This document shows, in pieces, positions 676-23,368 of a stretch of DNA of 23,368 nucleotides. The notes below the pieces were generated by a model. The model saw only the letters and a list, made by a program, of their open reading frames with translations. It had not been told where the DNA came from and did not search any database. The position numbers were made by a program, and so were the translations under genes. How positions within the stretch are numbered: the stretch's first letter is position 1; every line of letters starts with the position of its first letter. The stretch spans positions 62,001 through 85,368 of the forward strand of contig MEDY01000169.1 in assembly GCA_001724265.1 (NCBI GenBank), written 5' to 3'. This DNA is from Rhizaria sp. SCN 62-66 (Eukaryota).

Positions 676-1032
676 GCTCCGGGGGGGCTGGTGGCGTGCG
701 GGGAGCGGGAGGTCGGTGGTGATGCCGGTGCATGGCGGCAGCGGGGGCGCCACGACCACCGCACTCGCGCTCGCACTCGCACTAGCGCAAGACGAGCTGC
801 TGCTGCTGCTGCTGCTGTCGGCGCTGTTTTCAGCGGTTGTGTGTGTGTGTGCGTTGGTGGTGACGGGCGCGTGCGAGAGGAAAGAGTCGAGGTGGCGGAG
901 GATGTACCCCGTGGGGTTGTGGATAACGCTGCCAAACGGGCCGAAAGCGGTCAGGTACAAGTGCACGGGGCGCGGGGAACGCGCGGCCGCGGCGGCGCCG
1001 GGCGCAGAGCATGCTGGCAAGGGGGCGCTCAT
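1..1032 (-). CDS. PGPEP1: Pyroglutamyl-peptidase I (peptidase C15)-like protein, N-terminal 344 codons; continues past the left edge
   Basis: Manual translation from ATG at 1032 (in-frame TAA shortly upstream) is open to position 1. It gives VHLYLTAFGPFGSVIHNPT (C15 N-terminal TGFxPF..NP motif), EILPVS, VFVHFGVYQGIARFHVEAWGYNHAAFAIPD (catalytic Glu motif E-x4-N..IPD) and ALCSSLCVPAIVSAL. The catalytic Cys/His would lie outside the window. Poly-Ser/Asn inserts separate the motifs. Confidence 0.85.
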
Positions 1033-1405
1033 GGAGTGGCGCTGAGCAAGTAAGTGAGGAAAGAATGAGACGTATTAGCGTGATTGCGCATTGAAATGAG
1101 ATATGGCGATTGAATATAAAGTATATATTTAGTATTGTTTTGTAAAATGTGTGCTCTCAAGAAGTTAGAACGAGTTTGATGGCTGCAGAAGAGGAAATGT
1201 GTAGACTGGAGGCGGTTGTGGTCGGAAAGGCTCCGGTAAGTCAGGACGGACGCGTTTGGGAGGCGTAGTTTGGTTTAAGAAGAATAGTTCCTGTCAGTTC
1301 CGCTGGTAAGTCATATTAAATCGGTGTCAGGTATGGTAGAAGTGGGACATCTATCTGACGATAAGTGACACAAATGAACTTGAGGTCAAATAGCTGGAGG
1401 ATCTG

Positions 1406-1434
1406 TCTGTCTGGACAATCTGTCTGGACAATCT
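1406..1434. repeat. 13-bp tandem duplication (TCTGTCTGGACAA x2.2)
   Basis: Exact copies at 1406-1418 and 1419-1431, plus a partial TCT. Confidence 0.85.
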
Positions 1435-2307
1435 TTTTTCGGTACTGGGGAGCGAGGCTGGGCACTCAGTGCTCTAAGGGCTAGCTACAATACACCACGC
1501 AACTTCTCCTCTTTCGTCTTTGCAAGAAAATGCTGTGAAATCATCGTGGATCTTGTTAAGAAGTGCTGTAATACGTATTAATCGAGTGCATTTATTGATT
1601 CTAAAAGTGTAAGCTGCTGTGCGCCTGATATTGCCCTCAGATTGAGACTCAATATGGAATTGATCTTAGGGGTGCGACTTGCCTTGCTATATTAGGCTTC
1701 TACATCCGTATTATGCCAGCAGATGCTCGCTACAACCAGACATTTCTTATGAAAATGCTGATTTCTATTTATTTGCGACGATTATTTTTCATCAACAAAG
1801 TTCAACGCCCTCTTTCGTCGCATTCGCGCCCTTTACCAACTTAATACTTGTCAAACTCTCACAACGAACAACTACGACTATTTTTCTTTCTTTTCTGACG
1901 TGCCCACATTGTGTAGCCTCTACTGAATTGGTTCAGCACTTCAAACTTTACTAGCAACGCCCCAGTAGCTCTTCAATCGCTGCAATCGCGCGTGCTCTTC
2001 TACGACCGCAAGCTCCTCCACATTTTCTTACCATTCCGGTCACGGTCATCTGGAGCACTTGTGCGTCTCTCTTCGCAAGTGTAGTCGATTCGACACTCAC
2101 ACCTTTTCTGGTGCATTCGCCCAGTTTTTGACGTTATTAACTTTTCAGGTTTGTTCATAACTCACGCCTTTTCATCCTCGCAACTCTCCCTGCGTACGCT
2201 TGCTGATTGGCACTGCTTTTGACTGCTAAGCAAACACACCTGCCATAAACACGTCGCCAACGCCAGTTTCTTCTAAACTCGGGTGAGGCCGATTCTTGCT
2301 TTCTGTC

Positions 2308-5300
2308 ATGGATGTTTACAAGTATATGGCGTGCAATCCTTTTACGAACTAGAATCCGTACTACTCTTTTCTTTGCGCATCCGCTCAAGATGTAAAAAAT
2401 GTATTTGCCAAATTCACTCCAGACATTGCAAGGACTTCTATCAAAACTCTCGATGAGGCCAGACTTTTAAACCTGTTTTCGGCTTCAACTCTGGATGTGG
2501 GTGTATCCAAGGCATCGCGCACGAGGGCCAGGAAGAGGACATTTCGGAAAGCGTTCAAAGAAATGAATGAATCGACAACGAAGACTTGCGACGATGCAAT
2601 CGAGGCGTTTGGCCGGCTTACGCCAGGAAGGGAGAACTACAACATTCGCGAAGGTGTTAAGTTGCTTAGAAATGTCATCGATCAGGCTCAGAAGACACAA
2701 ACAAAGATCAGGACGGCGCGTGCTGCTTTCACAAAGCTCGTAAATTATGGTTGTGCGTATGGCGTCGAGCACTTCAAGAGCGAAGCTCACGATCTCCGCG
2801 TCAAATTCAAGCTCGTTAATCATGTGATTGAAAACTCAGAGGCCAGGAGCAGTGAGCTCGAAACTTCTTACATTAAGAGTTTGATCGATGAGATTCGCAA
2901 TTTTCTCAAAGAAGTTGAGAATTCAACTCCGCGCTGTACTCGTCGCACTCTCTCCCGATTACCTGATCGTCTTAATGTTTTCGATCCTTCTGATGAGAAA
3001 TCATTTCTCATCATTGTTGCTGAAGCTGGACATGTCGCCACTATGATCGAGTAGGCCCAGAGTCTCCTTGATGACATCGAGAACCCTGACTACAAGACCG
3101 ACACATTTCACTTGGTCACTGAAGACAAGGTTGCTCTTCAAACGCTGTCAGTGTACGCTTCGCACAGTGCGCAATGGTTGGTGAGTGCGAAGCGCGCTTA
3201 TTGGGAGCGTGATAGGGCTCGTTTGACTCAGACTCTCAAGCACTTCGAGCGCACCTCCAAGGATTGGGAATAGGCCAAACACATGACGTGTAGCGACTTC
3301 ACTATTGCGTTAACTCAGCTTTACGATCGGATGGCAATTGTTCGCCCCACCACCCCAATCCAACAGGTAAAATACGACTCTCCTTTCGAGGCGGAGCTTA
3401 ATTTGTCTGCTGAGCTACTTAAGCGGTTCAAAAACTGTTTGGATAAAACAACGGACGCCGATCAAAGTAGCTCATTTGTCGTCTTGCCACATCAAGTCCA
3501 ACTATGCTTGTTGTCAGCCCTTTGTGCTCTATTTGAGAGGTTTTCTAAATCGTTTCCAGCACTTCCTAGCGACATCCAGCTAAAAAAGAAACCGACCTTT
3601 AAAAACATCACGCAAAACGAATATTAGTGTATCTTTACGTACCGGCAACTGTATTGCTTTGTGAAGTGTCTTCGTCATAGGTTTGCTCATAATACTCATG
3701 ATGCCTTGGAAGACAAAAAGATAGTGGATGAAATGATCGAGGAAATTTATAAACGGTTGAAGAACAACCATTTACGTGTTGACGATAGCGCTTCGGGTCT
3801 TGCTGAGAAAGAGTGGCTGCTTTTCATGCGCTCTCTGCTTCGTTACTGCAAAGGAGAGTCGTCCTCCATTCTCCCCGTGCACCAGTCATCACGCGCCATG
3901 CGCGTCTGGTTTAAAGACATTGTTTATGAGCTGGCTATGAAAACAACTCTGGCTCAAAAACATGTGGACAAACTCGAAGATTCTATTTCCGCAGCAAACG
4001 GTACCGTGGTACGGATTACGAACAAAATCAATAAGAAGGCTGGCTCCATTAAACAGATCGAAGAAAATGCAGCACGCTATGACGAGGCAACAAAAGAGAA
4101 AGAGAACAAACTCAAAGGCGAACGTTCCTCTTTTTAGCTGCAGTTAAAGGAGGAGAAAGACAATGTGGCATCCTTGAAATTATAGCATCTGTGTAAAAGT
4201 GATCTCCTGCGTGCAAATGCGATGTTTCAGAAGAACGATGTCGCGCCGGCGTGGCAAAATGTTGGTGATGAGCATGTGTACCGTTTCCGCGTCGAGGCGT
4301 ATCACACGCTCTGTGACTACGTCAAACTGGACGATCAATCCCTCAATTCTCATCCTGTTGTTTGCGATAGCATCATTGCATCTCTGTTTCCTTCGTTTTT
4401 CAAAGCAGTCAAGAAATTGCCTGGGGCTGCCAACGCTCCAGCTAACTTAGATAAGGTGGGCCAGATCAGCTTTCTTAAATAGCAGCTTGAACAACTTGTT
4501 GTGCGCACTGCCCAGAAACGGACCACCTCATGTTGTGATGATGATAAATGTACACTCAAAGCTGTTTCTATTTTAAAGCACGTTGGTAATACGCTACGAC
4601 ATCGGAAGGGTGGACGTATCGTCATCAACAACAATAAGCAGCTGCAGGCGGCGTTGCAAACAGCGTTAAAATGGTTATTGACTTTATTTGGGTCAGATGG
4701 TCAATACGTATCTCGACATGAAAACGAGAAGCACGTTCGCAAAACAGTTGACAAGCTTCACACGGAGAGTGTGCTTAAAAAAAACAAACTTGAGTTCATT
4801 GGGGACGAGATCAACCGTTTTGATTTGTTCGCGCGAGTTTCTGCACAAATTTCTTGCCGGACTCTAAAAACCAATGAGAACAACGACATTAACCCACATC
4901 TCAATGTTCACCAACTGACCCGCCTGAATTGCCACCACTCATCTTGGTTAAACCTCAAAGGAACGCAAAAAACAAACACTTTTAGTACAAAGGAGAAGCG
5001 GCCCTTGTGGAAAGTATTGTTTTGGTGTGTCAAAGTTGCTGAATGTGCTTTACATCTTCTTTCTGTGCCTATCCCCGGCGACGCTCCGTCTCAGAATGCC
5101 AACGGAGTGTTGTCTGAGAACCGTGGTCCAAACCAAACTGTTCTGGCAAATCAATTGCCACCTGTTGAGGGAGGTGTTTTGCCTGCGCGGATTCAGCTTG
5201 CTCTATTGGTGCCTCATCTTCGGTTGAAGCTCAATCCTGTTTTACCTGATCAAGCAAATCGGATTCGGATATCGATAGCGTCCAACCCGTCAGTGGAACT

Positions 5301-6663
5301 GTGCCTCACTGCACGACAGATTCAAATACTCTACAAAGCTGTTGTGGATAAGTACACGACGGGAAAAGGTTGTGTTGGTGACGCCGACCTGGAGTCTATC
5401 AAGGAGACTCTGAAGGGCGAACTCGAACCCAGGCATGAGTGCCTGCACGCCAACCAGTGGTTCAGGGCAGGTGGGCGCAGCTGGAGCGCAGACTTGGACA
5501 TTACCAGCTCGCATGTCTGGTGCATCAATTGCATCCCCGGTCAGTGGGCATGGACTATGCTTGCACTGTATCATTACACGATCGACCATGTTGAAGCGCA
5601 TATGATCTCACCTGAACGTCTTGCTTGGTTTACAAACTTTTGGTTTAAGCGCAACAGCTAGCGCATCGATTCTTCACGGAAACCATACAGGCCGCATCTA
5701 ACTTTGCGCACGCCCAAAAATACTAGTTTGGAGTCGCACTACAAGAGTTTCAATCGTGATATCCAATGTCTACAAACGGACATTGTTCAGTCACTCTACT
5801 CTGGATTCCTGATGTATCAAAACCGTTCGTTTGTCATGGGATTTGTGCTGCGAATGATGTCATTCTTCGATCGTTTTCTGCGTAATTGTCTAGAACAGTT
5901 TTTTACTGGGCTCCCGACTTAGTTCTCTCGATTATTTCGTATTTTACTTCACAAGCGATCAACGCAGGTGAACAATGGCCTGTCTGGCGACGTGCTGCTG
6001 TTCACACACGAAGAAAATGACCTATATCCAATTCTAAGTAGTGTTGTCTGTGCTCGTGGATTAAATCGAGTTGAAACCGCTTTCCATGACGTCGTAAGCT
6101 TACGCAATATGTGTGCACACGCTGACTATGACAATTGGGGGATTCCTGCTTTTGACCTTGACGCTGATAAGCTTTCAAACCGAATTTTGACGCATTGTCC
6201 CGAACAGCTCGTGAAGTACCTCCATCTTCATTACTTTGCTCGCTCTCAGCTTCCGCACTGTCCCTTAAGGCCGGGGGTTAAAATCCCCGCAAATGGGCTT
6301 GCTAACAACATGTCTCGTCAAATATTCAATGTTAAATTTCCGAAATCTATGTTCAACGTACATTGTAGTGTAATATCACCAATCAATGGGCTCAAATATA
6401 TGAGGGATTGTATCACAAAGTGTACAGATGATTTTTTTGCCACTCCTGAAGAGGTGGTGAAGGAGAACCTTTCCGATGCCGTCCGGGAAATTCCCGGGCT
6501 CCGTGACAACGCTGGTTGGGTGCTACTTGTGTTGCCGCAACTATTACTGGAGCTCGCACACCTGCTGTCACAGACACGCATCCCCGCAAGTCATGATAAG
6601 AGAAAGGTTGACGGGTACGAGGCTGAGTTGGAATCGTGGCTTAAGCTCGGCAATTCAACGTGA
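2308..6663 (+). CDS. 1451-aa helical protein with two HEPN-like R-x4-H motifs, encoded through nine in-frame UAG codons
   Basis: ATG at 2308 (upstream in-frame TGA at 2284). Frame +1 is open to TGA 6661-6663 except for TAG at 2350, 3052, 3271, 3625, 4135, 4183, 4480, 5659 and 5920. Gaps between the track ORFs translate as normal-looking protein (e.g. MIE*AQSLLDDIENPDY, FLK*QLEQLVV). Motifs: RHRFAH 3673-3690, GNTLRH 4585-4602, RNMCAH 6103-6120. Coiled-coil-like segment ~3950-4200. Confidence 0.8.
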
Positions 6664-6834
6664 TGCAAAGCAACCTGGTGCGTAATATCAACCAATCCCG
6701 ATATTATATCTATCGCAATACCCACGCTTGAAGCAGTGATATTTTGCCTGATGCTTTCGAAATACTTCTATGTATTTAATAACACGTGCCTGAATATAAT
6801 GTGTATTTTTAATATGAAACGAACAAATAATAAC

Positions 6835-7036
6835 TGTACGTACCGGACGGAGTAGTGCATTCCATCATCCGTACTAGTACGAGTACGTACGTCCTTAATT
6901 TGAAATACAAAAATCTCCTACACACGATTTAAGCTATTTCCGTGGACGTATGATTACGTACGTAAGACTTACTACGTACATAAGTCACAACTGAGTGTTT
7001 ACACAATCACCATACGAAACCGTCCGAGTGTGTACA
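6835..7036 (+). ncRNA. Candidate structured RNA, or MITE-like fold-back element
   Basis: 6835-6850 pairs with 7020-7036 (16 pairs including two G.U, one bulged A at 7027). Internal helices are TACGTCC/GGACGTA, CGTATG/CATACG and GACTTA/TAAGTC, with several perfect palindromes. No evidence of transcription. Confidence 0.3.
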
Positions 7037-7965
7037 TATTGAAGGCGAAATCCGGTGAAAAACACGTTAGCCCGTCATCCCGCCGTCGTCTTGTTTTGTG
7101 TAGGTAGCTGTGAGGTTGCGTAGAATCCTTTTGTGGTCATATCGTTATGTACTGTGAGATTTAGCTATAAAATTGCATTTTTAGGCCTACATCATCGTGT
7201 TGATTTGTCGGCAATATCAATGGAAATCCCATTGTCGTGCGATGTGGCCGGTTGTGTCGAGCTACGTGCTTCCAGTGTATTGACGTTGGCCTATTCAAAT
7301 ACGCACACACGCTCTTGAACGGTTTCACCATGAATATATTGTCACAGAGGAGGTATCCAAGTGTCACATTCTAATCTCCAGATTAATGAGTGATACACAG
7401 CACAGCAAACGTCAGTCATACTTGAAATGCGCTAAGAAACATATAAAAACAGTGTGCAGTACTTAGAAAATTCAATAATAAAGCAATACTAATATTACTA
7501 TAAGTTGCTAACTCAAAAATTGTCACCAAGTCAATTCAGCTTCTCCTATTTCCAGTTCCCACGGTATTGGTTTTTTCGAATCTGGTGACCGTTGCAAGCG
7601 CCAATCTATCCGCTCTATTTTCTTGCCCATACCATCACCCAGTCGTAAAATATCACAATTGAAATCAAACCACGAATAAATCTCTGCTAATTTCAAATTA
7701 AAATCTTTCATCTCTTGCTTTAACCCCGCCAACTCACCTCTCCTCCATTGCCCGCCTTCGCACTCCCGCCTCTTTCCCCACTCTCCCCACCCGCTCGCTC
7801 CCGCTCTCCCCTCAGCACCCCACTCTCCCAAACTACCCTCCAAACCTTTTTATTGCTCGTGTATAGCTTTTCCTTGTCTCAGCTCCCCGAAACCAAGCGT
7901 TCCTCCGCTCTCTCGCACACTTCCAACCCGCTCTAGCAAACTCTGTCCTCACTCTTGCTTGCTTG

Positions 7966-8001
7966 CTCGCCGACCACAACCATCTCGCCGACCACAACCA
8001 T
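7966..8001 (+). repeat. 18-bp tandem duplication overlapping the start codon
   Basis: CTCGCCGACCACAACCAT at 7966-7983 and 7984-8001. The first copy is followed by C, the second by G, forming the ATG at 8000. Confidence 0.85.
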
Positions 8002-9524
8002 GTCCCGCACCCAGCCTCGCTCTATGCCTCCCCCGCCAATTACGGCGCGCCGTTCGACGGAGAACGTGCTTGACGACGCCCAGCGCAAGGCCCTCCAGGC
8101 CTTCGACGTCTCTGGCGCCGCCACCGCGTCCCCCAACGCGTCCGGAGGCTCGTCGCCCGCCGCGCCGTTCGATTTTGCCTCGCTGTTCCGCGCCCCCGAG
8201 GAGAAGCCCAAGTCTAAGCCCCGCGCCTACCCTGCCGCAACCTCCAGCTCTAGCTCCAGCATGTCCACCACCACAACCACCACGACGACGACGACTGTGA
8301 ACAAGGCTGGCGCCTCTCCCGCTGGCTCTGCCTCTGGCTCTGCCTCTGCTGCGGGCCGGCCGAGCGTGTCGCACATGCTGGACGCGATGCGCAACACCCC
8401 CAGCGGCGGCGGCAAGCTCGGCGGCGGCGGCCGCACTGCGGGCGACTTCCTGGGCGCTCTTGACCCGTCCGTGCTGGCCGTGCTGCACCAAATGGCAGGC
8501 GACGAGAGTAATCCTTCTGCTGCGACCGGCACGCGTGCGGTCAGCTACTCTGAGGACGAGGACGACGAGGAGTCTGAGGAGCCCGCGCCCGCGCCCGCGC
8601 CCGTGGCTGTGGCTAAGAAGGGCGGCCGCAAGAGCCTCGGCGTCCCCGCTGCTGCTGCTAAGAAGGGTAAGCAAGCTGAGGCCGAGGCCGAGGAGGAGGA
8701 GATTGAGGTCGAGTCCGTCCCCTCCCGCCGCCGCGCCAGCGTCGTCCCTGCTGCCACTACTGGCGGTCGCCGCAAGTCTGTTGCGCCTGCCCCTGCTCCT
8801 GTGGCAGCGGGCCGTCGTGTGACCCGGTCCCGCGCCCGCGCCGCCCACGACGACGACGACGCCGACGAGGCCGCTGCCGCCGCCCCTGTTGCCGCCGCCG
8901 CCACTGGCAGCCGCCGCAAGTCAACCACCGCCACCGCCGCTGCCCCTGCTCCTGCTCCTGTGGCAGCTGCGACAGGCCGTGGTGCTGCCAAGCGCGTCTC
9001 TGCCGCCGCCACCGCTGCTGCTGCTGCTGCACCGAACGCCAGTGTGGCCGATTACGACGAGGACGAGGACAACGGCGATGAGCTGCTCGACCTGGTGCCG
9101 CGCCTGGACACTCTGTTCCCGATCAGCCCCTCCAACGGCAGCAGCCGCCGCCGCAGCCGCTCGGCACGCAACTACGACGACCTCTTTGCCGCCGCACCCA
9201 TGGGTACCGTTACGGGTACTGCTGACAGCGCGCTGGTGGACGACGTGCTTAAGAGCGTGGGGGCCGACCTCTCCGCAATCACCGCCTTCGCCAACAACAA
9301 CATCAACAACAACAACAGCGGCAGTGGCAACGGCAGCGGTAGTAGTAATGGTGTCGCCGGCGCAGCGGCAGGCGCTGCTAAGAGCGGCGTGGCGGGGGTC
9401 AACTCCGCCACCGGTGCTAAGGCCCTCAACCTGTCTGCGCCAGTGCTGCTGCTGCTGGCTGCGCTGGCCGTTGTCGCCGCCGTCGTCGCCAGCTACGCAG
9501 CCGCGGCCGCCACCGCAAGTCCGG

Positions 9525-9555
<31 letters not shown>

Positions 9556-9880
9556 CGCTGCGTACGTGGCCAGTCCCGTTCCCAACACGGCTGCCGCCGC
9601 TCCTGCTGCTCCCGCTGCTGTGCCTGCTGCTGCGCCTGCTCCTGCTGCTGCTCCTGCCACTCCCAACGCCCCCGTTGCCGCTGCCGCCGCCGCCGCTCCT
9701 GCTCCTGCTGCGCCTGCCGCTGCCGCTGCCACTGCTCCCGCTGCGGCGGCCGCGGCGGCTGCTGCTGCGGCCTCGGCGGCGGCGGCCAAGGCGAAGGCTG
9801 CGGCGGCTGCCGCGACCGCAGCCAAGGCTGCCGCCGCTGCGGCCGCGGCCAACAACGCGAACGCCGCTCCTCGCGTCTAA
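8000..9880 (+). CDS. Hypothetical 626-aa disordered protein with basic RRxS/RKS motifs, one predicted TM helix and an Ala/Pro-rich tail
   Basis: First ATG of the 7955..9880 frame is at 8000, with strongly GC3-biased codons. It ends at TAA 9878-9880, where composition shifts abruptly. Hydrophobic stretch VLLLLAALAVVAAVVASY ~9443-9496. Confidence 0.75.
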
Positions 9881-10421
9881 TGGCCTTGTTTCCGCCCTTT
9901 AAGTGCCTCGCTCATCGAAGCAGCGCTTTGTCTAAGTATGATGCTTCGATGTGAGTGTGTTTAGCGATCTCTCTTTGGATGTGTAAAGTCGTTGTTTTGC
10001 TAGTTGTTGCTTGGAACACAGTGAAGCTGCGTTGGCCGCGGCTGGTTTGTCCCTCAGATGACAAAAGCACAGCAGGGGTAAGCTTAACACTTAAGAAGTG
10101 GTCGTAACAAACTTCTTGAAGTCAGTCTTCAGTGACGGATTGTGTTGGCTTATATTCGTGTTCTTTGTAGTTGCAGAAGATGCTTTAAAGCGTGTTGATG
10201 TGATTGATGTGTGTTTTGTTTCCTGTTTTTGTGTATCTTTATCAGTAATCCTTGTTGCATGCGTGAGTTGCAGTTGCAGCCTTGTCCTCGTGTCCCTAAT
10301 TCATACAAATTTAAACATATGTAATGCGCTCTTTCATATTAATAGTACGTTCTTAACGTATCTCGAACACGTCACTCTCTGAAAATACTAGATTTAGTGA
10401 CTATTTGTTTTGCTGTGAGGA

Positions 10422-10956: not shown

Positions 10957-13900
10957 ATGGCCGACAACATCGACCTCGTTGCCCTCATGGCCGAGACGAC
11001 GCCAGCGACGCCAGCGGCTACAGCGATGCCAGCCAACAGCAACGGCGCCAGCAAGGGTGCAGTGCCTGCCCCGCTTGCGGTCACGACCCTGTCGCCCGCC
11101 CCGTCCGCGCTGCTGTCCCCGCCGCAGACGCCCGCCCCGGCCCCCGCCCCCTTACTATCGGACGCCTCTTTCTCCGCGCTCCTCTCAAGCCTCTCCAACT
11201 CCAACAGCAGCACAAGCAACAACAGCATCAGCAGCCGCAACGCCACGACGCTGGCGCTGGCCCGGCACCTGTGGACCGCGCTGTCTCGCCGCCCTCTGCC
11301 ATATCTCCCCCACACTCAAGCAGCGAACAGCAACAACAGCAACAACGCCAATGCCGCCAGCGCTGGCTCTGCCTCTGGGGGCGACGTCGCTGAGAGTGAC
11401 GACGTCGCCTTCTGGCGCCGGTTCGTGGCTACCATCCCCCCGCCCAACGCCACGGCCACTTACCTGGCGTCCAAGGGGCTGCTTCTGGCCGCGGTCGACC
11501 GGCGCATCGCCGCCGCCGCCGCCGCCGCCGCCGCGAACGCCGCCGCTGGCACAAATGACGGCGACAACGACGACGCTGACGCTGCTGCTGCTGCTGCTGC
11601 TGCTGCTGACAACATTAGCGACGACGGCATTGACATTGCTCTCGAAGCCGCCTCTCCTCAGCACAGCAACCCCAACGCCAACTCCGCCAACAACGCGACA
11701 GGCAGCCGGGGCGCTTTCTCGTCCTTCTTCGGGGCCTCGGCCGCCGCCGCCGCTGCCGCCGCCGCGGCCGAGGCCGCCAAGGTGTCCATCACCGCCCGCA
11801 GCATCATCCGCGACGCGCGGCGCACGCCCGTGCCCCCGGTCGGTCTAAGTACCGCCGGTCTAAGTACCCCGGGCAGCAAGGGTGTAAGTGCCTCTGAAAG
11901 TACCCCGCGGTTCGACTGGCGGTCCGTGGCGCGCGTCGTCGCCCGCTACTGCGATGCACACACGTTCCTCAACAGCCACAACCCAAACAACAACAACAAC
12001 AACAGCAGCAGCGGCAGTATTGGCAACGCTCTGAACGCCGCCACTGCGGGCGATGTTGGTAGCGAAGACAGCGGCGGCGGCGGGTTCTGCTACTACGTGC
12101 AGGGGATGACCGACGTCGCCGTCGTCGCCCTCACCATCGTCAGTCTAAGTACCCCCTTAGCCGGCGTAAGCGCCCCCGCGCTCTTCGCGGCCGAGAGTGC
12201 CGCCGTTACCCTGCTCACGACGCTGGCGAGGGCCGAGCCTGCGCTTGCGCTGGCCTGGGCTGGCCGGCCCTTAGAGCTACCGACGCCCTCAGAGGCCGCC
12301 AGCGCGGTGAGCTGCACGGACTCTGCCGCCGCCGCCACTGCTGCTGCTACTAACAGCGCGAAGAGCGCCCACAGTGCGAAGAGCGCGAACATCGCGAACA
12401 CCACGCTCCTGTCCCTGCCCTTTCCCTCTGTTTCCAACTCGAGCGCCGCCGGTGTGCGGGTGTCTGTGCCCGCCGCGGCCGCCGCGACCGCGGCCGTGCT
12501 GGCTGTCTTGTGGCGTTGCGACCCCGCGCTGGCCCGGGCTCTTTCACTGCCCCGCGGCCACTCGACCGGCCCCGCGAACGGTCACTCGGGAGAGAGTGAC
12601 TCGAAGGGGGTGGCGGCGGCGGCGGCGGCTGTTGAAGGGGGCGCGTGTTATCAAAGTCAAGCCGCGCTGACGGCGATGCTGGCGGGGTGGGCGCACAGTC
12701 TGTGCGTGCGGGCCCTTACACCCGCGGCACTTACACCTGCGACCCTTACATCGACGCAGTCGCCGTCCCCTCAGACCGAAAGCAGAGCGAGCGTCAACGT
12801 CAACGTCGATGTCAATGCAAGTGCGGGGGCGAACGGTGCTGCGGTGGGCTCTGTCGCCCCCGTCTTGTCACTATGGCGGGCCATGCTAGCCAACGCCAAC
12901 ATCACCAGCACCGTCACGAGCAGTTCCAGCTCTGCCTCAGCCTCTGCCTCTGGCTCCGGCTCTAGTTCGAGTTCGAGTTCGAATGACAACAGTGAAGGCA
13001 GCGGGGGTCTGATGCTCTGGCTAGCCATGGCGGCGCTGACGGCCCGTCGCGACTGCATCATCGGCGCGCGCAACGGCTCCAATAACGCAAATACCAACAA
13101 AAACACCCCTGCTGATGCGAATTGCAGTAGTGATAGTAGTTCCGCGGGCGAGACTGGTGCAGAGGCAGTGGCTTCGGTCATCTCCCAAATCGCCCGCGAC
13201 CCCCTCGACCTGCGCCAGAGTCTAAGCACCGCCTCCAATGTAAGTACCTCCACAGCGAGTCTAAGTGCGAATGAGTCCGGCTGTGCCGCGTCGCTGCACC
13301 GGCTGGCTCTGCTGCTGCACACGGCGAATGTGACTCGCACCGCGGCGGGCGCCCTGCTCCGGGCCGTCGTCGCCGCCGCCGCCAACGCCAGTCACTCCAC
13401 TAGCGCGAACTCTAGCCACGGTAACACCGCTGGGAGTAGCAATGCGAGTGCTGGTATGGGCGGTGTGCTACTGGCGTCCATCGTGTACAACTACGATCCG
13501 ACGCTGTTCACCGCCAGCAGCTGCAGCAGCAGCAGGAGCCGCCGTAGCAGCTCGGTCGCCGCCGCTCCCCACGGCAACGGCGGTCTCGGCCTCAGCCTTG
13601 GTCTTGCTCTGGGCTTGCCGCTGCTCACGGTCACTTCGGCCGAGGCGGCGGCGCTGGTGGCCGCCGAGTGCCCGTCGCTAGCGTTGCCCCACCTGCTCGC
13701 GGCTACTAAGCACAACAACAGCAGCAACAACAACAACATTCACTCCAGCTCTACTGCTACTGCTGGTAGTGACGCTGAGGCCAAGACCGAGGCGGATGAC
13801 GTCGCTGTTACCGCTGAGTCGGCTGAAGCCAAGGCCGCGGCTGCCGAGGCTGACGCCAAGGCTAAGGCCGACGCCGCCGCCGCATCAGAGGCCGAGGCCG

Positions 13901-14823
13901 AGGCTGAGGCTGCTGCAATGACGGCACGCGTCCTGGCCGTGGCCGCCGCTGCCGCCGCCCAAGCCGAGGCCCAGGGCTGGGCGCCCGTCCCCCTCACCAC
14001 TGCAGTCACCACCAAGCTCGTCAAGTACGCGCTCTCGCTCCTCGACAACCCCGCTAGCGACTCGAATGCCGCTGTGTCGGCTTTCGTCGCGAGCGTCTCG
14101 GCCCCAAGCGGCAAGGCTGACTCTGCCATCTCCGCCTCCACCTCCGCTGCCGCTGCCGCTGCTGCTGAGGCTGCTGAGGCCGCCGCGGTGTTGCTGGCCC
14201 GCACCTTGTTCCCGGCCTGTGCCTCGGACGCCTCCGCGCTCGCCGCGGCCGCGCCAGAGACGGTGGCGGCCGCGGCGGCGCTCGTGGCGGCGCTGTCCCC
14301 GGCCCCCGCGCCGTACTACTACAGCCGCAGTCGCATTGGCCGCGGCAGTGGCAACGGCAAGAGTGGTGTTAAGAAGGCTAGCAAGAAGGACAAGAAGGCG
14401 CAGACGGGCAGCAAGCCTCCGGCGACTGTCGCCTCTGGCGAGAGCAGTGAAGCCGAGGCCAAGGTGTCTACCGCCAATACCACCGATGGTAGCAGCAAGG
14501 ACACCAAGCCTGCTGCTGAAGCTGCTGCTACTGCCAAGGTCCAGGCCAAGGCCCAGGGCACCGATGAGGCTGACGATTTGCTGGCCGACTTGGCCGCTCT
14601 GGGCATCGATGTGGCCGGCACCAAGACCGCGAAGGCGGTCGAAGCTGAGGCGTCCAAGGCTCAGGGGGCCGCCGCTGAGGGCGCGTCTAAGGGTGTCGAT
14701 GCGAAGTCTAAGGGGGGCGACCTGGACGACTTGTTGGCCGACTTCGACTCTCTCGTCGCTGCCGTCAAGACTACTAAGGATACCGCCAGCGAGCCTAGCG
14801 CCGCTGCCACTGCTGCTGCTGCT

Positions 14824-14858
<35 letters not shown>

Positions 14859-15997
14859 CACTGCCAATGCCGCGATTGCGGCCGACATTGCTGTTGAGGA
14901 CGAGAACGACGACGGCGACGACGACGACGATGATGACGATGATGACCAAGAGGAGGATGACACGTTTGAGCTCTCGTCTGCGCTGTCCCCGGCCGCCTGT
15001 GAGCAGGGTACTTACACCCCGTCTAAGGGCTTCGGCTCCTCGTGGCTGCAGCTGCTCTGGCTTCTGTCCCCTTTGCGTCACCGCCCTTTCCTGCTTCTGG
15101 CCTCGGCCGCCGCCTCGGCCGCCGCCTCCGCCAGCGCCGGCAACGGCAGCGGCGCTGACTGCGACAGCGTCGGTGGCGCCAACTCGAGCGCCAGCGCCAG
15201 CGGCAGTGAGAATGGCAGTGTTGTTAGCAGCCGCAGCAGCAGCGACTGCATTGCGAAGGCGATTGTTATCGACCTGTGTCCTGCGCTCGAGGCCGCCGCT
15301 GCGGCCGCAGTTGCCACCACCGTCGCCGCCAGTTCGCGCTCCCGCTCCAGCTCGTCTTTCGCAGTCAACAACGACGACAATCCAAACAATAAGACCAGCA
15401 GCGATGACGCCGCGAACGCGAATAATGACGCGGCCGACGCCAGCAGCAGCGCAGACGCCGCTGCGAAGCTCCCCTCTCACTTGCACTCGCTGTCAGGGCT
15501 GCTGGCGGCCGCCACCGCCGCCGGCGAGATCGCCGCTGCCGCGCGCCCCCTGCGGCCGGTCGTCGTCCGCCTGCCACTGTTCCTCTCCCACCTCAGCAGC
15601 GGCCACGGCAGCGCCGCCGCTGGTGACGCCGAGGCCGCCGCTGCTGCGGCGACGGAGGCTGAGAGCACGAGCAGCAAGCTGTTGCGCTGGGTGCGGCGCC
15701 CGCGCTCCCAGTCTGCCGCCCCCGCGCCCCATAGTGGCGAGGCGGGGGCGCTGGCGCAGGTGGTCGCCGAGGTGACGGCGGGCGCCGCGGCTGCGGTCGG
15801 GCTTGTTGCGCGGCAGCTGCTGACGGAGACGCTGTGCCACGCGGTCACAGTTGTCTGTGTGCCCACCGTCATCTCGCCGGCGATGCTCGCGATGCACTGC
15901 AACAACAACAACAGCAGCAGCAGCAGCAGCAACGCTGTTACGGCGAGTGATGCCGCTGCCGCCGCCGCGACTGAGAGCACAAACACTGATTCTGGTG

Positions 15998-16030
<33 letters not shown>

Positions 16031-16363
16031 AGAACACAGAAGTCAAGCCGGCTTCGTCGGCCGCTAGCGCCGAAGTCAAGCCGCTGCCGCCGACGCGCCT
16101 TTTCCTCGTGCGTCGTCGCGTCGTCTTCCCCGAGACGGAGTCCGATGACACTGCCAACGCCGCTGCCGCCGCCGCCGCCGCCGTTGCCGAAGCCTCCGCG
16201 AGCGGTAACGCTGCGACTGCTGTCCAAAGCAGCGCCAACTCTACTCTCGCCGCCGCCGTGGCCGCCGCCGCCGCCGCCGCCGCCGCCGCGGCCGCGGCGA
16301 GTGGGGGCGGCAACAACCGCTTCCTGGCGGGCGCGCTCACGGTCAGCGCACAGGAGGCCCAGG

Positions 16364-16394
<31 letters not shown>

Positions 16395-19278
16395 GATCGG
16401 ACGCGGGGCCGCGCTGAGCGACGGTGACGACGACGAGGAGGACGATGACATCGGCGCCGGCGCCTTCCGGTTCCACGGTCTCGACGACTCGGACTCGGAC
16501 TCTGGCTCGGACTCGCGCAGCGCCAGCGCCAAGGGCAAGGCCGGGTCTAGAGAGAAGGCCGGAGCTGGCGGCGGCGCCGGCAGCGCGAAGACGGCCGAGG
16601 TGGGTCACAGCGACGGCGAGAGCGACCTGGAGGACGACGACGACGCTGCCGGCGTCAGCGGCCTGCACTTGAACATCATGCTCCGCTCTCCGATTCCCCG
16701 CAGCAACAACAACAATAGCTCTAGCAACGCCAGCGGCGGCAGCAGCGCCAACGGAAGCCGCAGAAGCAGCCTCGCCGGCGCTGGCGCTGGCACTGGCGGG
16801 AGCAGTCTCACCACGAACTCCGCGGTCTCGAACGGCGTCGCCGTGCCTGGTGCGGGCACCGAGACGGTGGCCGGCGCGCTGCGACTGCTGGCGAGCGACT
16901 GGCTCTGGTCGCTGCTGCTGCTGCCCGCGTCGGAGCTGTCCGGCGCGCCTCTGTTCCCGGTCCCCGGCACGGACGTCGAGGCCGGCGTCATTACGAGGGA
17001 GGTGCTGGCCACGGACCCGCTGTTGCTGCGTCTCCTCACCGCCGCAGACGCCGCTGACGGCGACGGCGACTCTGGCCGTGGGAGCGACGAGGCTGAGTCC
17101 ACCGCCAAGCCTGCTGACGGCGGCGACAGCGCTGCCCGTCAGACCGAGTCCGACGGTAAGACCGAGAGCGGGAAGGCCGAGACCGGGGTTGCGCCGCCGG
17201 CGAGTCTGGCGGCCGTGGGCGGCGCCAAGAGCGTGTTGGCCCGCGCCGGCGGCTCGAAGCGCGAGCTGCTGGCCGCGGCCCAGGCCGTGCTGGCGAACGC
17301 GGCGCCGGTGCTGCAGCCGCGGCGCAGCGTCCGCGCCCACGCGCCCCACATCCCCTACTTTGCTCTCACTCGAGCCAGCGGTTTCGGCGCCAGCGCCAAT
17401 GCCAGCGCCAACGCCAACCCCAGCACTGGGCAAAGCGACAGCGAGGACGAGAACGACTCTACCGCCACTGCCACTGCCACTGCGACCGCGAGCGCGAATG
17501 CTGCGGTAAGCGGGGGGGCCTGTGTGCTGGTGCGGTTGAGCGAGGTGCCCGTGGGACCCGAGCACGCCGCCGCCGTCGCAGCCTCCGAGGCCCGGCTGCC
17601 CGCCTTCTTTGCAGAGGTCCAGGCGCTGGCGCGGCGGCGGCGCGCGCGGCAGCGGCATGCGGCCGAGGCCGTGCGGCGCGCGGAGGAGGAGGCCGCCGCC
17701 GCCGCGGCCGCTGCAGCTGCAGCCGCGGAGGCCGAGGCCGCAGCCGCCAGGGCCGCAGCCGCCGCAGCCGCCGCCGCGGCGAAAGAGAGCTCTGGCGGCG
17801 GCTTTGCGTCGCGACTGCGGATGTGGGGCAAGAAGGCCGCCGACAAAGTCGGCACCGCGCTCGACACCGCCCTGGAGAAGGCCCTCGCCCCTAGCCCCGC
17901 GCTCGGCGGCCACGCCGGCGGACTCGTCGAGGGCGGGGTGGCGGCCGCCACTGGCAGGCTCCGGTCCTCTACGGCCCTGCGGCGGCTCAGTCCGGCCGAG
18001 TGGGAGGCGCGCGAGCCTGGACGAGTCTGGGTCAACCTGGCGGACCTGGCGTCGTCGCCGGAGGTCGGCCTCTTCGTCGTCTACGAGGCGCGCCGCGCGC
18101 ATAGTAGCGAGGCGGGGGCGGGCTCCCATAGTAGCGAGGCGGGGGTGTTGCGGCGCGATGGCGGGCGCACGGTGTTCGTGCCGCGCGTGCTTGTGCTGTC
18201 GCGCGTGCGGCTGCTCGTTCTCTCGCTCCCGGTGGCCAGCGACTACGGACTTGTCCGCCCCCGCGCGCCTGCCGCCGCGCTGCCCCACAACTCGAACAGC
18301 TCGAGCCTGAGTCCCGCGCACAGCGAGACGACGGCGACGGCCACCATCTCGCCCTTCGTCTCCCCTTCGTTCGGCGCCAACGCCCGCTCCCCGACTGCCG
18401 CTACAGGGCCCGCGGTGGTGGCGGCGCGGCTCGAGGCCCGTCTCTCGCTCCGCACGCTCGACCGCATCACGCGGTCAAAGCAGCGGCCTGCGCAGCTCGC
18501 CTTCTACTGGCGTCAGCAGCCCTCTAGCAACAGCAACAGCAGCAGTTTGACTGGGGCCGTCACCGGGGAACGGCGGTACGTGGTGGTGCTTCCGAACGCT
18601 GCCGCCGCGCACGACTGCGTGACGATCTTCACGCGGATGTATCAGAATCTGATCTCCAGCTCGGCATCGGCCTCCACTGCCGCCGCCGCCGCTGCTCCTG
18701 CTGCTGCCGCTGCCTCTGAGTCGAGTGATGCCGTGAACAGTAGTGAGTCTCCCGCGAGTGCTGCTGATGGCAGTGCCAAGAGCGAGGACAGTGCTACGGC
18801 CGCCGAGCCTGCTGCTGCTGCTGCCGCTGTTGCTGTTGAGTCGGGCCGGAGCAAGGCTCTGGACCTGGCCAACGGCAGCAGCAACAGCAGCATCCCCAGC
18901 ACTGCGTCCAACACCACCCCTACCAGCACCACTGCGTCCAACACTGCATCCGCGAGTGCGAGAGCGAACGCTGCGCCTGCGCCTGTGCCTAGCAACGACC
19001 TGAACGCTGCCGTCGTGGCCGCCGCGGCCGCCGCCGCCGCGACGACTACCAGTGCCGCCAAGTTCATGATGACCGCCAACGCCACCAACGCGAGCAGCAG
19101 CAACAACAACGCTAACACTAGTTCTGCGGGCAAGCCTGCGGTGGCGTCAGGCGCGGCCGTCGCCGCGGCTGCGGGCGCGCGCGCGACGGCCGAGGCTGCG
19201 CCTGGCGCCTTCTCGCTGCTCGGTGACGACGCCGCGCTCGGCGACGACGACGACGACGATGACGAGGAGCTGCCTTGA
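10957..19278 (+). CDS. TBC1D23: TBC (Rab-GAP) domain protein with TBC1D23-like architecture (TBC, rhodanese-like, C-terminal PH-like), heavily expanded by low-complexity inserts
   Basis: 2773-codon uninterrupted ORF ending in TGA. TBC motifs: IIRDARRT (11803-11826), YYVQGM (12091-12108), LWRCDPALARAL, GWAHSL, VLSLW. Rhodanese-like AIVIDLCP (~15259-15282). The C-terminal block VLVLSRVRLLVL...ARLEARLSLRTLDRITRSKQRPAQLAFYW...RYVVVLPNA (~18025-18654) resembles the TBC1D23 PH-like domain as I recall it. The TBC call is strong; orthology is moderate. Confidence 0.75.
14801..14858 (+). repeat. GCN trinucleotide run encoding poly-Ala (representative of many in the window)
   Basis: (GCT)n(GCG)n tract. 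Similar GCC/AGC/AAC/GAC runs occur throughout the GC-rich genes, e.g. 641-678, 9530-9560, 11510-11535, 16261-16298, 16364-16394. Confidence 0.9.
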
Positions 19279-19507: not shown

Positions 19508-21658
19508 TCACGCCCAATCGTCGTCATCATCATCACCGTTATTGCGATTGCTCTCCGCCTTAGTATCGACCCCCATCACTCTCGCACTCGAGCTTGAGAT
19601 CGAGCTCGAGCTACTGCTGCCACCGCCGCTGCTACTCGCGCCGCCAACCCCCGAGCCCCCGCCCCCGGCCGCGGCGCCGGCGCCTGCGACAGTAACGCCC
19701 GCCGCGGCCGCCTGGTGGAGCTGCAGCGCGGTGGCCTTGAGCAGCCTGCGCGCGCGCACAACGAGCGGCTGCCGCAAATCGAAGTCGGCCGCCACGCGCT
19801 CCCGCAGCGCCGCCAGCGCCGCCGCCGCGCTCGCGGCAGACGCGCTGCTCCCCGTCCCGGTGTGAGCGCTGTTGGCGGCGGCGATGGCGCGCTGGGCGCG
19901 GACGCCCTTGGCGCGGAACTGCTCGTACACGGTCTGCGCTTGCTGCAGCCAGGCCGCCAGCGCGTCGAGGGAGCGCGCACGGAACGCAACCTCGCGCCGC
20001 GCCCAGTCGACGAGACTGCCGCTCGCGACACGGCCGCTACTCGCAATCGCCCCAGAGCTGTTGTCGGCGGCGCCAGCGGCGGCGCCAGCGGCGGCGGCAA
20101 TGGAGGCGCCAGCGGCGGCGACGGCGGCCGTCCAACCCCCGGAGACACGTGAACTCGCACTCGCTGTCGCACTGCTCGGATCGCTAGCATTGGTAGCACT
20201 GCTCGTGTTGTAAGGGGCGGGCACGGGGGCGCGGAGGCGCGCCTCGACCTCCGCGAGCAGCGTGGCGACGCCGGCCATCTCGGCCGCAGCGGCGGCGTCG
20301 GCCTTGGCGTCGGCGGCCCGCAGCACGCGGGACACACCCCCGGGGACACTGCTCGCCGCTGCCGCCGCCGCTGCCGCTGCCGCTGTATTGCCAGATCTTG
20401 TAGCAGCAGCAGCGGTGGTGGCGGGGGCGTTACTAGACTTGGAGCGGACACCAGGGCCGGCAGGGACGGGGGCGGTGGCAGCCGCGGCAGCGCTCATAGC
20501 AGCAGCGGACGGCAGCAGCTGCTGCTGCTGTTGCTGCTGCTGGCGCTGCTGGTGGAGCTGCTGCTGCGCGGCGCGCGAGAGCGACTGCTGCTCGAGCGCG
20601 GCCCGCACCCGCTCGCGCATCTCCAGCGGGATCGCCGGCGCCACACGCACGCGGCCGCTGCTGCTGCTGCTGTTGGTGTTGTTGTTATACACGGTGGTCG
20701 AGCTCGCGCTGGCGCTAGAGCTGGCGATGTTGGCCGCAGCAGCAGTAGCAGTCGGGGCAGTCGGGGCAGGACGCTTGGCGCGAGAGCTGCTGCTTATATC
20801 ACTGCTACCGCTGCCAGTGCCAGTGCTAGTACCGCTGCTGGTGGCTGCAGCGCTGTTGGCGCCGCCGCTGTGGGCGCCGCTGATGCTGTGCGTGTGGTGG
20901 TAGGACGACAGCAGCGCGGAGGGCCGGTTCGGCGCGGTGAGGAACTTGCTCTGGCCCGGCAGCGACACCGCCGATAGGGGCGCCAGCGCCGCCGCCCCCG
21001 CCCCCGCCGCCCCCGCCCCGGCGCCTGCGCCGCCGGAGCTGCTCGAGCTGGCACTCGCGCTCGCGCTAGCGGCGCTGAGAGGCGAGGACAGCGAGGACAG
21101 CGAGGGCCGCGCCGCAGCGGTGGTGGCGGCGCGGGCGACGAAGCGGCCGGCAATGGCGCCAGCGACGGTGAAGCGGCTCGCGCGCGCGCCCGCGTCAAGC
21201 GCGGCCATCAGAAAGGCTGTCGCCTCGTCCTCCTCGGCCTCCGCGGCGGGGTCACGCGCGGCGGGGCGAGGTCCGGCCTGGAGCGCGGCGGCGCGACCAA
21301 GGTGCTCCGCGGCCGGGTCCCAGGGCGCGGCGCGGTACAGGAAGCAGCTGGAGGCGCGCTCGCGCGTCGCGTCCAGCTCGAACAACGCGCTGCCAATGCG
21401 CAGGCGCGCGCGGCGGTCGCCCGCTGCGCTGCCTGGGAGCGTGAGGGAGGCGGCGGAGTCCGCGCTGGAGGCGTCCGAGGGAGAAGGGAGCGAGACGGAG
21501 CCCGTGGGGGAGGACTTGAGGGCGGACACGAGCTGCTCAGCAATAGGGAGTGGAAGCCGAAAGAAGTAGGACGCGCCGCACTGCGCGGAGTCGCGCGCGG
21601 GGCCCGCCAGGTGCGAGGGGCCGACGACGACATGCTCGTTCGCGACGGTGGTGCTCAT
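19508..21658 (-). CDS. Probable RNA polymerase II elongation factor ELL-like protein (ELL N-terminal-like region plus C-terminal Occludin/ELL-like helices)
   Basis: 716-aa ORF from ATG 21658 to TGA. The N-terminal blocks YFFRLPLPIAEQL, RLRIGSALFEL..CFLYR, FTVAGAIAGRFVAR and EMRERVRAALEQQSLSRAA follow the order I recall for ELL N-terminal domains. The C-terminal amphipathic helices LDALAAWLQQAQTVYEQF and LRERVAADFDLRQPLVVRARRLLKATALQL fit an Occludin_ELL bundle. The CDS is secure; the product call is tentative. Confidence 0.6.
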   Translation of the reverse strand: MSTTVANEHVVVGPSHLAGPARDSAQCGASYFFRLPLPIAEQLVSALKSSPTGSVSLPSPSDASSADSAASLTLPGSAAGDRRARLRIGSALFELDATRERASSCFLYRAAPWDPAAEHLGRAAALQAGPRPAARDPAAEAEEDEATAFLMAALDAGARASRFTVAGAIAGRFVARAATTAAARPSLSSLSSPLSAASASASASSSSSGGAGAGAGAAGAGAAALAPLSAVSLPGQSKFLTAPNRPSALLSSYHHTHSISGAHSGGANSAAATSSGTSTGTGSGSSDISSSSRAKRPAPTAPTATAAAANIASSSASASSTTVYNNNTNSSSSSGRVRVAPAIPLEMRERVRAALEQQSLSRAAQQQLHQQRQQQQQQQQLLPSAAAMSAAAAATAPVPAGPGVRSKSSNAPATTAAAATRSGNTAAAAAAAAAASSVPGGVSRVLRAADAKADAAAAAEMAGVATLLAEVEARLRAPVPAPYNTSSATNASDPSSATASASSRVSGGWTAAVAAAGASIAAAAGAAAGAADNSSGAIASSGRVASGSLVDWARREVAFRARSLDALAAWLQQAQTVYEQFRAKGVRAQRAIAAANSAHTGTGSSASAASAAAALAALRERVAADFDLRQPLVVRARRLLKATALQLHQAAAAGVTVAGAGAAAGGGGSGVGGASSSGGGSSSSSSISSSSARVMGVDTKAESNRNNGDDDDDDWA

Positions 21659-22459: not shown

Positions 22460-23368
22460 ATGGCACCCTACCACCGCGACCAGGGACAGTCTCCCCGTCT
22501 AACTTCGCTGCTAACGGCTATGTTCCTACTGTTGACACTTATGTGGTGTTTCTGCGGCCTCGTCTCGGCTCTCCCCACCCTGGCGTCATTCCGCGTGACT
22601 TTGGAGAACCCGTCCCTGCGCAGCCTTTATCTAGGTTACACTTGGTACAACATAACCTCTCTTCTGCCAAATGCGACGAACAGTGCCGTAATGACGCGCT
22701 GTAATGGCGCGCCAGACGCTCTTCGCTATATTGAGGGCACTCGGGGTTATCATTCTCCGACCGCTCCGATGCCAGCCGGAGCAACGGTGTGGGAGGAATC
22801 CGTCACTCCGGTGGACAAAACCTACATGTCAATTGTTTACCGCGCTGCGTCAACGAAGGAGATGTCATGTTCGATTTATACCCAGGACGGAACAGTACAG
22901 CTCGCCAGTGAGTCTATTGTCCAGCAAACAGCTCTGCGGCGTGTGGCGCAGGTCACGGTCTCCACGACGGGAACGACATTCACCATTCCGGACCAGGCGA
23001 ACACGGTACAGCTGTACTCACGCACAGACAAGTACGAGATAGCGGGCCCTACGTTGCCAACATTTGCGCTTACAAAAGCGTCCGCGGTATACTACACCAT
23101 GACTAAGACGACGACGCCGACGATTACATATGTCGTGGCGCCAAAGTTAGACGTCTTCGCATCGACACTCGCGCCGGAGCTGACAAGCTCGTCCGTGATG
23201 GTCAGCGCAAACGTCACTGTGAGGCTGTACTCGAGTAGCCGCACCATTGTCCTTACACCCGCGGCGCCAACCTTTGTGTACGTCACCAACACAGACGTGA
23301 ACAACTTCGCGACATCCAAATGGAGTCTCGCGCTTTCGCCCACAATCTACTCGGACTGGATCATCGCC
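22460..23368 (+). CDS. Secreted or cell-surface protein with signal peptide, Thr/Ser/Val/Tyr-rich; first 303 codons, continues past the right edge
   Basis: Manual translation of frame +2 from ATG 22460 (context gcaATGG, as at 10957; upstream in-frame TAA at 22271): MAPYHRDQGQSPRLTSLLTAMFLLLTLMWCFCGLVSA|LPTLASFRVTLEN... open to the window end. N-glycosylation sequons NIT, NAT and NVT. Confidence 0.8.
   Translation, partial: MAPYHRDQGQSPRLTSLLTAMFLLLTLMWCFCGLVSALPTLASFRVTLENPSLRSLYLGYTWYNITSLLPNATNSAVMTRCNGAPDALRYIEGTRGYHSPTAPMPAGATVWEESVTPVDKTYMSIVYRAASTKEMSCSIYTQDGTVQLASESIVQQTALRRVAQVTVSTTGTTFTIPDQANTVQLYSRTDKYEIAGPTLPTFALTKASAVYYTMTKTTTPTITYVVAPKLDVFASTLAPELTSSSVMVSANVTVRLYSSSRTIVLTPAAPTFVYVTNTDVNNFATSKWSLALSPTIYSDWIIA

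Follow-up and report, generated by a model that had tools for sequence, protein, structure and literature searches.

A 1,458-codon reading frame interrupted by nine TAG codons and by no other stop suggests that UAG is read as sense, decoupled from UAA, in an orphan gene

The window analyzed here is the whole 23,368-nucleotide stretch of contig MEDY01000169.1 from position 62,001 to 85,368, and all coordinates below are counted from its first base. Toward its left end lies a candidate protein gene in which TAG behaves differently from the other two stop codons. Frame 1 of the + strand is open from 2287 to 6660, a run of 1,458 codons bounded by TGA at 2284 and TGA at 6661, if TAG is passed over. 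A listing of every stop codon in the frame of base 2308 shows nine TAG in these 1,458 codons, with zero TAA and zero TGA. The first ATG of the frame is at 2308, and translation from this ATG to the TGA at 6661–6663, with readthrough of each TAG, gives a protein of 1,451 residues. Counting codons from the ATG, the TAGs are found on the + strand at 2350–2352 (codon 15), 3052–3054 (codon 249), 3271–3273 (codon 322), 3625–3627 (codon 440), 4135–4137 (codon 610), 4183–4185 (codon 626), 4480–4482 (codon 725), 5659–5661 (codon 1118), and 5920–5922 (codon 1205).

With translation table 11, the candidate appears as seven open reading frame (ORF) fragments, at 2497–3054, 3283–3627, 3661–4137, 4222–4482, 4501–5661, 5704–5922, and 5968–6663. 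A further ORF, at 4199–4450, overlaps the candidate in another frame. A preliminary description of this DNA, made from the sequence alone, had stated that the seven + strand fragments share one frame that has no frameshift and closes with TGA, that the long frame holds nine TAG without TAA or TGA, and that CAA, CGA, and TGG codons are present in it. The ORF list and the full stop listing of 2287–6663 bear this out, and the codon counts in frame are 28 CAA, 10 CGA, and 20 TGG. Standard gene callers split the candidate into seven or more fragments, and it is these pieces that public protein collections hold; the protein-cluster members of the fragments vary in start point only.

Metagenome runs from reactors and wastewater contain the sequence, with all of the sampled words found in run X1, 85% of them in runs X2 and X3, and small shares in runs X4, X5, and X6; no RNA run was listed among those that contain it. 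A single contig of run X1 spans 829–8546 with zero differences, and an independent contig of run X2 spans 829–3291; a chimeric contig is ruled out by this coverage. A metagenome scan gave one locus, identical to the window at 1477–3291. Introns hiding the TAGs were rejected by reasoning, since nine introns would all need a length divisible by three and would all have to lack TAA and TGA. The candidate has a GC content of 0.46, with 0.52, 0.38, and 0.49 at the first, second, and third codon positions, which is a coding-like pattern. The third-position value (GC3) of 0.49 is near the intergenic GC content and far from the GC3 of 0.74–0.83 in the neighboring genes.

As a chance baseline, we used the stop rates per codon in the two other + frames of the candidate stretch. 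TAA and TGA together occur in these off-frames at 0.0456 per codon, which predicts 66.5 in the candidate frame, where none is seen (P = 2.6e-30). For TAG, the off-frame rate of 0.0055 per codon predicts 8.0, and nine are seen. Thus, TAG has not been selected against in the candidate, while TAA and TGA are fully excluded from it. Decay was modeled as single substitutions in an intact gene, with uniform, transition-biased, AT-biased, and empirical spectra. A stop is created by 3.5–5% of such substitutions, and 40–43% of the new stops would be TAG, so that the probability of nine TAGs in nine stops is 3–5e-4 across the four spectra. The hallmark of a pseudogene, mixed stop types together with frameshifts in an unconstrained frame, is absent, as there are 0 TAA or TGA and the window copy of the candidate is without a frameshift.

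A diverged relative of this locus is present in run X7, a wastewater run that is labeled RNA-Seq but that we rate as probably DNA. Its short contigs match both the candidate and the flanking genes. Five pieces align with the candidate frame over 1,251 bases and show 103 differences from it (8.2%), compared with 23 differences over 533 bases (4.3%) for the flanking genes. The net length differences in the five candidate pieces are 0, +9, 0, +12, and +6, all of them multiples of three. The flanking coding pieces have net differences of −6 and −3, and a piece over the 5′ edge of the gene at 8000–9880 has −1. The substitution spectrum between the two copies is unremarkable. At 4480, the relative has AAG (Lys) in place of TAG, and this is the sole site with a comparative sense codon. 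At 5659, no change is found among the differences listed for the relative, and the codons on both sides of this TAG do differ (5650, CGC to CTC; 5662, CGC to TAC). The TAG at 5659 is thus probably kept. Its apparent retention, together with a frame in which net indels come only in multiples of three, indicates that the TAGs predate the split and that the frame is still maintained. As the frame remained open with TAGs already in it, TAG probably is, or until very recently was, translated in the candidate.

These results suggest that UAG is read as sense in the candidate gene, decoupled from UAA. The preliminary description had claimed that UAG is treated apart from UAA and UGA in this frame, with which the stop listing and the chance tests agree, and that ordinary pseudogene decay is a poor fit, which is upheld by the improbability of nine TAGs in nine stops and by the lack of any net indel other than multiples of three against a relative diverged by about 8%.

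How widely, then, is UAG read as sense? We favor, with a probability of roughly 0.45, an organism-wide reading in which UAG is readable through a tRNA-CUA, possibly with leaky termination, has been purged from the biased genes, and is neutral in the candidate. The candidate would be an intact, fast-evolving protein gene without known relatives, carried in the nuclear genome of a GC-rich eukaryotic microbe that lives in wastewater reactors. UAG would be decoded in it as an amino acid, with UAA and UGA as terminators. The decoding would be provided throughout the organism by a tRNA with the anticodon CUA, either alone or combined with an eRF1 that recognizes UAG poorly. UAG would be purged from the GC-rich, strongly codon-biased genes, and would drift to its neutral frequency in the candidate, which is low in GC and may be weakly constrained.

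The genes around the candidate differ from it in composition. The window is in two states, with ORFs of GC 0.65–0.76 (GC3 up to 0.83) and spacers of GC 0.42–0.45. The ORFs are long, apparently intron-free, and found on both strands; the spacers are about 1 kb in length and pyrimidine-rich; and the neighbor proteins have long runs of Ala, Ser, and Asn. The setting looks like that of a microbial eukaryote. On the − strand at 1–1032, with its 3′ end cut by the window, is a gene with a GC3 of 0.78. Its nearest clusters in the Atlas are eukaryotic pyroglutamyl peptidases (Peptidase_C15), with a score of 0.90 and with 28 of 30 matches sharing the family set, so a pyroglutamyl-peptidase-like function is a lead only. 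The protein contains long low-complexity inserts, its sole sequence relative is a metagenome protein with 35% identity, and a comparison with solved structures gave no match. To the right of the candidate, at 8000–9880 on the + strand, is a GC-rich low-complexity orphan that ends with TAA at 9878. It is followed on the + strand at 10957–19278 by a GC-rich orphan of 2,773 residues, which ends with TGA at 19276, and on the − strand at 19508–21658 by a GC-rich orphan of 716 residues, which ends with TGA at 19508–19510. None of these four genes has an in-frame TAG. The last ORF, at 22460–23368 on the + strand, is incomplete at its 3′ end, has a GC3 of 0.66, and has 0 TAG in 303 codons. An N-terminal segment of its product is hydrophobic, Thr and Ser are abundant, and no Pfam family matches; it may encode a surface or secreted protein. 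In the gene at 10957–19278, a short Y-x-Q-G-like motif at 12091–12108 is reminiscent of RabGAP/TBC domains, in a segment without a Pfam match. No Pfam family, deaminases included, was matched in the five neighboring ORFs.

A number of observations weigh against a UAG that is read as sense throughout the organism. The four GC-rich neighbors have 0 in-frame TAG in 4,459 codons. Their off-frames predict 26 TAG, 19.5 TAA, and 60 TGA, and TAG is excluded from these genes as TAA is. The ratio of TTG to CTG is 23:148 in the neighbors versus 30:31 in the candidate, and the ratio of TAG to CAG in the candidate is 9:27. If the TAG to CAG ratio of the candidate is scaled by the shift in TTG to CTG, the number expected in the neighbors is about 3 TAG if it codes for Gln (P(0) of about 0.05), rising to about 7 with Leu and about 17 with Lys. 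A rare TAG codon could go unseen in the neighbors because of their strong codon bias. After TAG readthrough, no other TAG-interrupted ORF of at least 150 residues is obtained in the window, and no neighbor is lengthened. No tRNA gene was found within the 23-kb window. The terminators are TGA for the candidate, TAA at 9878, TGA at 19276, and TGA at 19508–19510 on the − strand, so that none of the four is TAG, as the preliminary description had noted for the complete genes, and this is correct for every gene whose 3′ end lies within the window. It speaks mildly for a changed code, although four terminators are too few to exclude TAG as a stop. The comparison with run X7 gives a further point against an organism-wide sense UAG. 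Of the 103 differences, the 26 that are listed hit 23 codons, with 3 synonymous and 20 non-synonymous outcomes, many of the latter radical. Thus, purifying selection appears to act on the frame only and is not seen on the residues, as judged from these 26 of 103 differences, a small sample that may be biased to divergent patches. Residues that change at a near-neutral rate within a maintained frame would suggest a rapidly evolving protein and are a poor fit to a dead gene. The preliminary description had also held that the window is unable to separate a genome-wide code from local recoding. We agree, and add that the window leans against TAG as a freely used sense codon, as shown by 0 in 4,459 codons versus 26 expected.

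Which amino acid would UAG specify? The preliminary description mildly preferred Gln from the positions of the TAGs in predicted helices, and this preference is unsupported. There is no homologue of the candidate, so no TAG can be aligned with a conserved residue, and the protein has no internal repeat able to align a TAG with a residue. At 4480, the sole comparative site, the codon is AAG; a single change separates it from TAG, and it would be compatible with Gln, Glu, or Lys or with a simple nonsense mutation. Gln is nevertheless the most economical guess for the candidate, since a transition turns CAG into TAG and since Gln agrees best with the neighbors.

NCBI translation table 15 (Blepharisma) is a reassignment of UAG only. 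Other nuclear codes of this kind are those of Iotanema spirale, in which UAG is Gln, and of the rhizarian exLh, in which UAG is Leu (PMC5304391), and phyllopharyngean ciliates have UAG as Leu or Gln (PMC11687900). As described for exLh, 384 UAG are found in 71 transcripts, and UAG is the rarest Leu codon in the ribosomal-protein genes and is absent from half of them (PMC5304391). This uneven use is a precedent for a strongly uneven distribution of a reassigned UAG. The candidate resembles these codes in having in-frame UAG while UAA (and UGA) still terminate, a combination that implies a tRNA-CUA. However, UAG in the known codes is found in many conserved genes, whereas here it is found in one orphan and in none of five neighbors. 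The host also looks GC-rich, intron-poor, and non-ciliate, unlike the hosts of the UAG-only ciliate codes. The feature that the window can address, in-frame UAG in further genes, was looked for in these 23 kb only and was not found, and membership among the UAG-only nuclear codes is a candidate status only.

Few nuclear codes reassign UAG and leave UAA unchanged. They inform us on how a stop codon is captured, which takes a tRNA-CUA and changes in the release factor by which UAG is told apart from UAA. If an organism-wide sense UAG is correct here, the UAG-only codes would gain a new, independent case in a wastewater eukaryote that is GC-rich and not a ciliate. It might then represent an early or leaky stage, since the codon is missing from the biased genes and at a neutral level in a gene under weak constraint. 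Literature searches, judged from their listings, gave nothing that matched a code of this type in protists from wastewater or a gene like this one.

The candidate protein is an orphan by every sequence search that we made. No relatives beyond its own fragments came up in a word-index search of near and shorter lengths, and a HMMER search with residues 252–1451 against 1.84 billion representatives gave 5 matches, all of them the window's own fragments. Nothing exceeded any Pfam cut-off for the whole protein, for five fragments, or for segments of the neighbors. PADLOC gave no match for the protein, a search of solved structures by its sequence gave nothing useful, and phage records, viral contigs, and prokaryote genomes contain no match. 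The read-through protein is predicted to be mostly helical in AF2 models, which were made with no alignment input and have pLDDT values of 35.7 and 40.4.

HEPN RNases have a catalytic motif of the form R-x4-6-H. The candidate protein has an R-x4-H motif at residues 456–461 (3673–3690, + strand) and an R-N-x3-H motif at residues 1266–1271 (6103–6120, + strand), each HEPN-like, found by regular expression and a lead only. By the same kind of search, there are 8 R-x4-H motifs in the protein, versus about 3 estimated by chance. For the fragment at 5923–6660, the nearest language-model clusters in the Atlas are Csm6 HEPN, with scores of 0.89 and 0.88, under the bar of 0.9, and with 102–104 of 256 features shared. 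Two canonical motifs in a protein predicted to be largely helical, with Csm6 HEPN as its nearest language-model clusters, are what the candidate may have in common with HEPN RNases such as Csm6. It differs from them in having no Pfam or PADLOC match, in Atlas scores below 0.9, and in models with pLDDT of 36 and 40, so this is a resemblance only.

The alternative that survives best is decoding confined to this one locus or to certain conditions, although we think it unlikely. TAG would be a normal stop in this organism, and the candidate protein would be made only when its UAGs are edited (to UGG or CAG) or suppressed. A suppressor tRNA could be regulated or virus-borne, and the nine TAGs would then serve as a safety catch on a possibly harmful HEPN-like protein, as the R-x4-H motifs and the Csm6-like C-terminal fragment (0.89 and 0.88; lead only) would allow. 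This explanation agrees well with the neighbors, since TAG is excluded from their 4,459 codons as strictly as TAA and yet occurs at the neutral rate in the candidate. It also has a fungal precedent in TAG-only premature stops of filamentous ascomycetes that are corrected in RNA by A-to-I editing (PMC10776026, PMC12754623). In Fusarium, 71 genes with such stops are described (PMC10776026), and in the antiviral OLD-ZAO module of Neurospora, a neighboring deaminase edits UAG (PMC12754623). The edited ascomycete genes stay under selection, with the stop acting as a conditional switch (PMC10776026, PMC12754623). The candidate is similar to these genes in being otherwise intact with TAG-only stops, nine of nine. 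However, the ascomycete genes have one or two sites each, and two sites were reported in 6 of 71 genes, far fewer than the nine in this one gene. The A of TAG falls in a predicted hairpin loop for 3 of 9 in-frame TAGs; the count is 7 of 16 for off-frame TAGs and 131 of 300 for A's taken at random, so there is no enrichment, as judged from the minimum-free-energy fold alone of 43-nt windows. The nine TAGs have no common sequence context that we could find, and none of the neighbors matches a deaminase or any other Pfam family. Furthermore, nine serial readthroughs would leave almost no product unless suppression were efficient. If TAG is a normal stop here, a nine-TAG open gene would point to conditional decoding of a kind undescribed outside a few fungi.

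TAG-recoded phages have genes full of in-frame TAG in cells that may use TAG as a stop. A second alternative, which we regard as quite unlikely, is that the candidate was recently imported from a donor in which TAG is sense, such as a ciliate or a TAG-recoded virus, and that it is untranslatable in its present host and has not yet decayed. The orphan status of the candidate, its GC content of 0.46 versus 0.65–0.76 in the neighbors, and its very different codon usage would be expected of an import, and the neighbors behave as if TAG were a stop. Metagenomic giant-virus genomes for which a TAG-recoded table gives the best reading are on record, as are insertions of viral DNA into the genomes of protists (PMC13524828), and these viruses resemble the candidate in having many in-frame TAGs where the cell may stop at TAG. 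In contrast, the candidate is a lone gene among cellular-looking genes. Its low GC content and its dinucleotide signature match the host's own intergenic DNA, with a dinucleotide distance to intergenic DNA of 71, compared with 48–137 among the intergenic pieces themselves. The window has no viral genes, terminal repeats, or tRNA near the candidate, including any suppressor tRNA; neither inverted nor direct repeats, as would flank a mobile element, were found on its two sides; and the phage, viral-contig, and prokaryote collections gave no match. The relative in run X7, diverged by about 8%, lies beside relatives of both flanking genes and differs by net indels in multiples of three only. About 4 new TAA or TGA codons would be estimated for this lineage at that divergence, and 0 are seen.

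A further proposal, which we consider highly improbable, is an amber-gated gene. TAG would be the stop of the host, and a possibly toxic HEPN-like protein would remain silent until UAG becomes readable through inducible editing or a suppressor tRNA. The suppressor could come, for example, from an infecting TAG-recoded virus, and the gene would act as both the sensor and the executioner for that state.

The last alternative, that the candidate is a pseudogene, either ordinary or specially mutated, in which the TAGs are nonsense mutations and TAA, TGA, and frameshifts are missing by luck or through TAG-biased mutation, is very unlikely, since it runs against the probability of 3–5e-4, the absence of a frameshift in the window copy, the net indels in multiples of three, and the AAG of the relative at 4480, which is neither CAG nor TGG. 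A TAG-only mutation process has left no sign, as CpG is not depleted in the candidate (1.04) and the spectrum against run X7 is unremarkable. The number of stops, nine, is about that expected at a neutral divergence of roughly 4–5%, and this, the non-synonymous change in 20 of 23 codons among the differences listed, and the GC3 of 0.49 near the intergenic GC are the points that a pseudogene does explain. Pyrrolysine as the reading of the TAGs seems a poor fit to a eukaryotic-looking setting and to nine sites in an orphan gene.

Some minor observations concern the rest of the window. An Rfam search gave weak microRNA-like and sRNA matches, far under the gathering scores and all in GC-rich parts, which we take as chance. 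In the gene at 8000–9880, coding repeats of the GCC/GCT type (8750–9100 and 9800–10150) draw hundreds of contigs, many of them with false joints. The summed depth over these repeats is up to 1,855 in run X1 and is no guide to copy number. The spacer segment at 7019–7201 is matched, with 21 differences, by a 14.7-kb contig of runs X1–X3, and it is probably a dispersed repeat within one genome.

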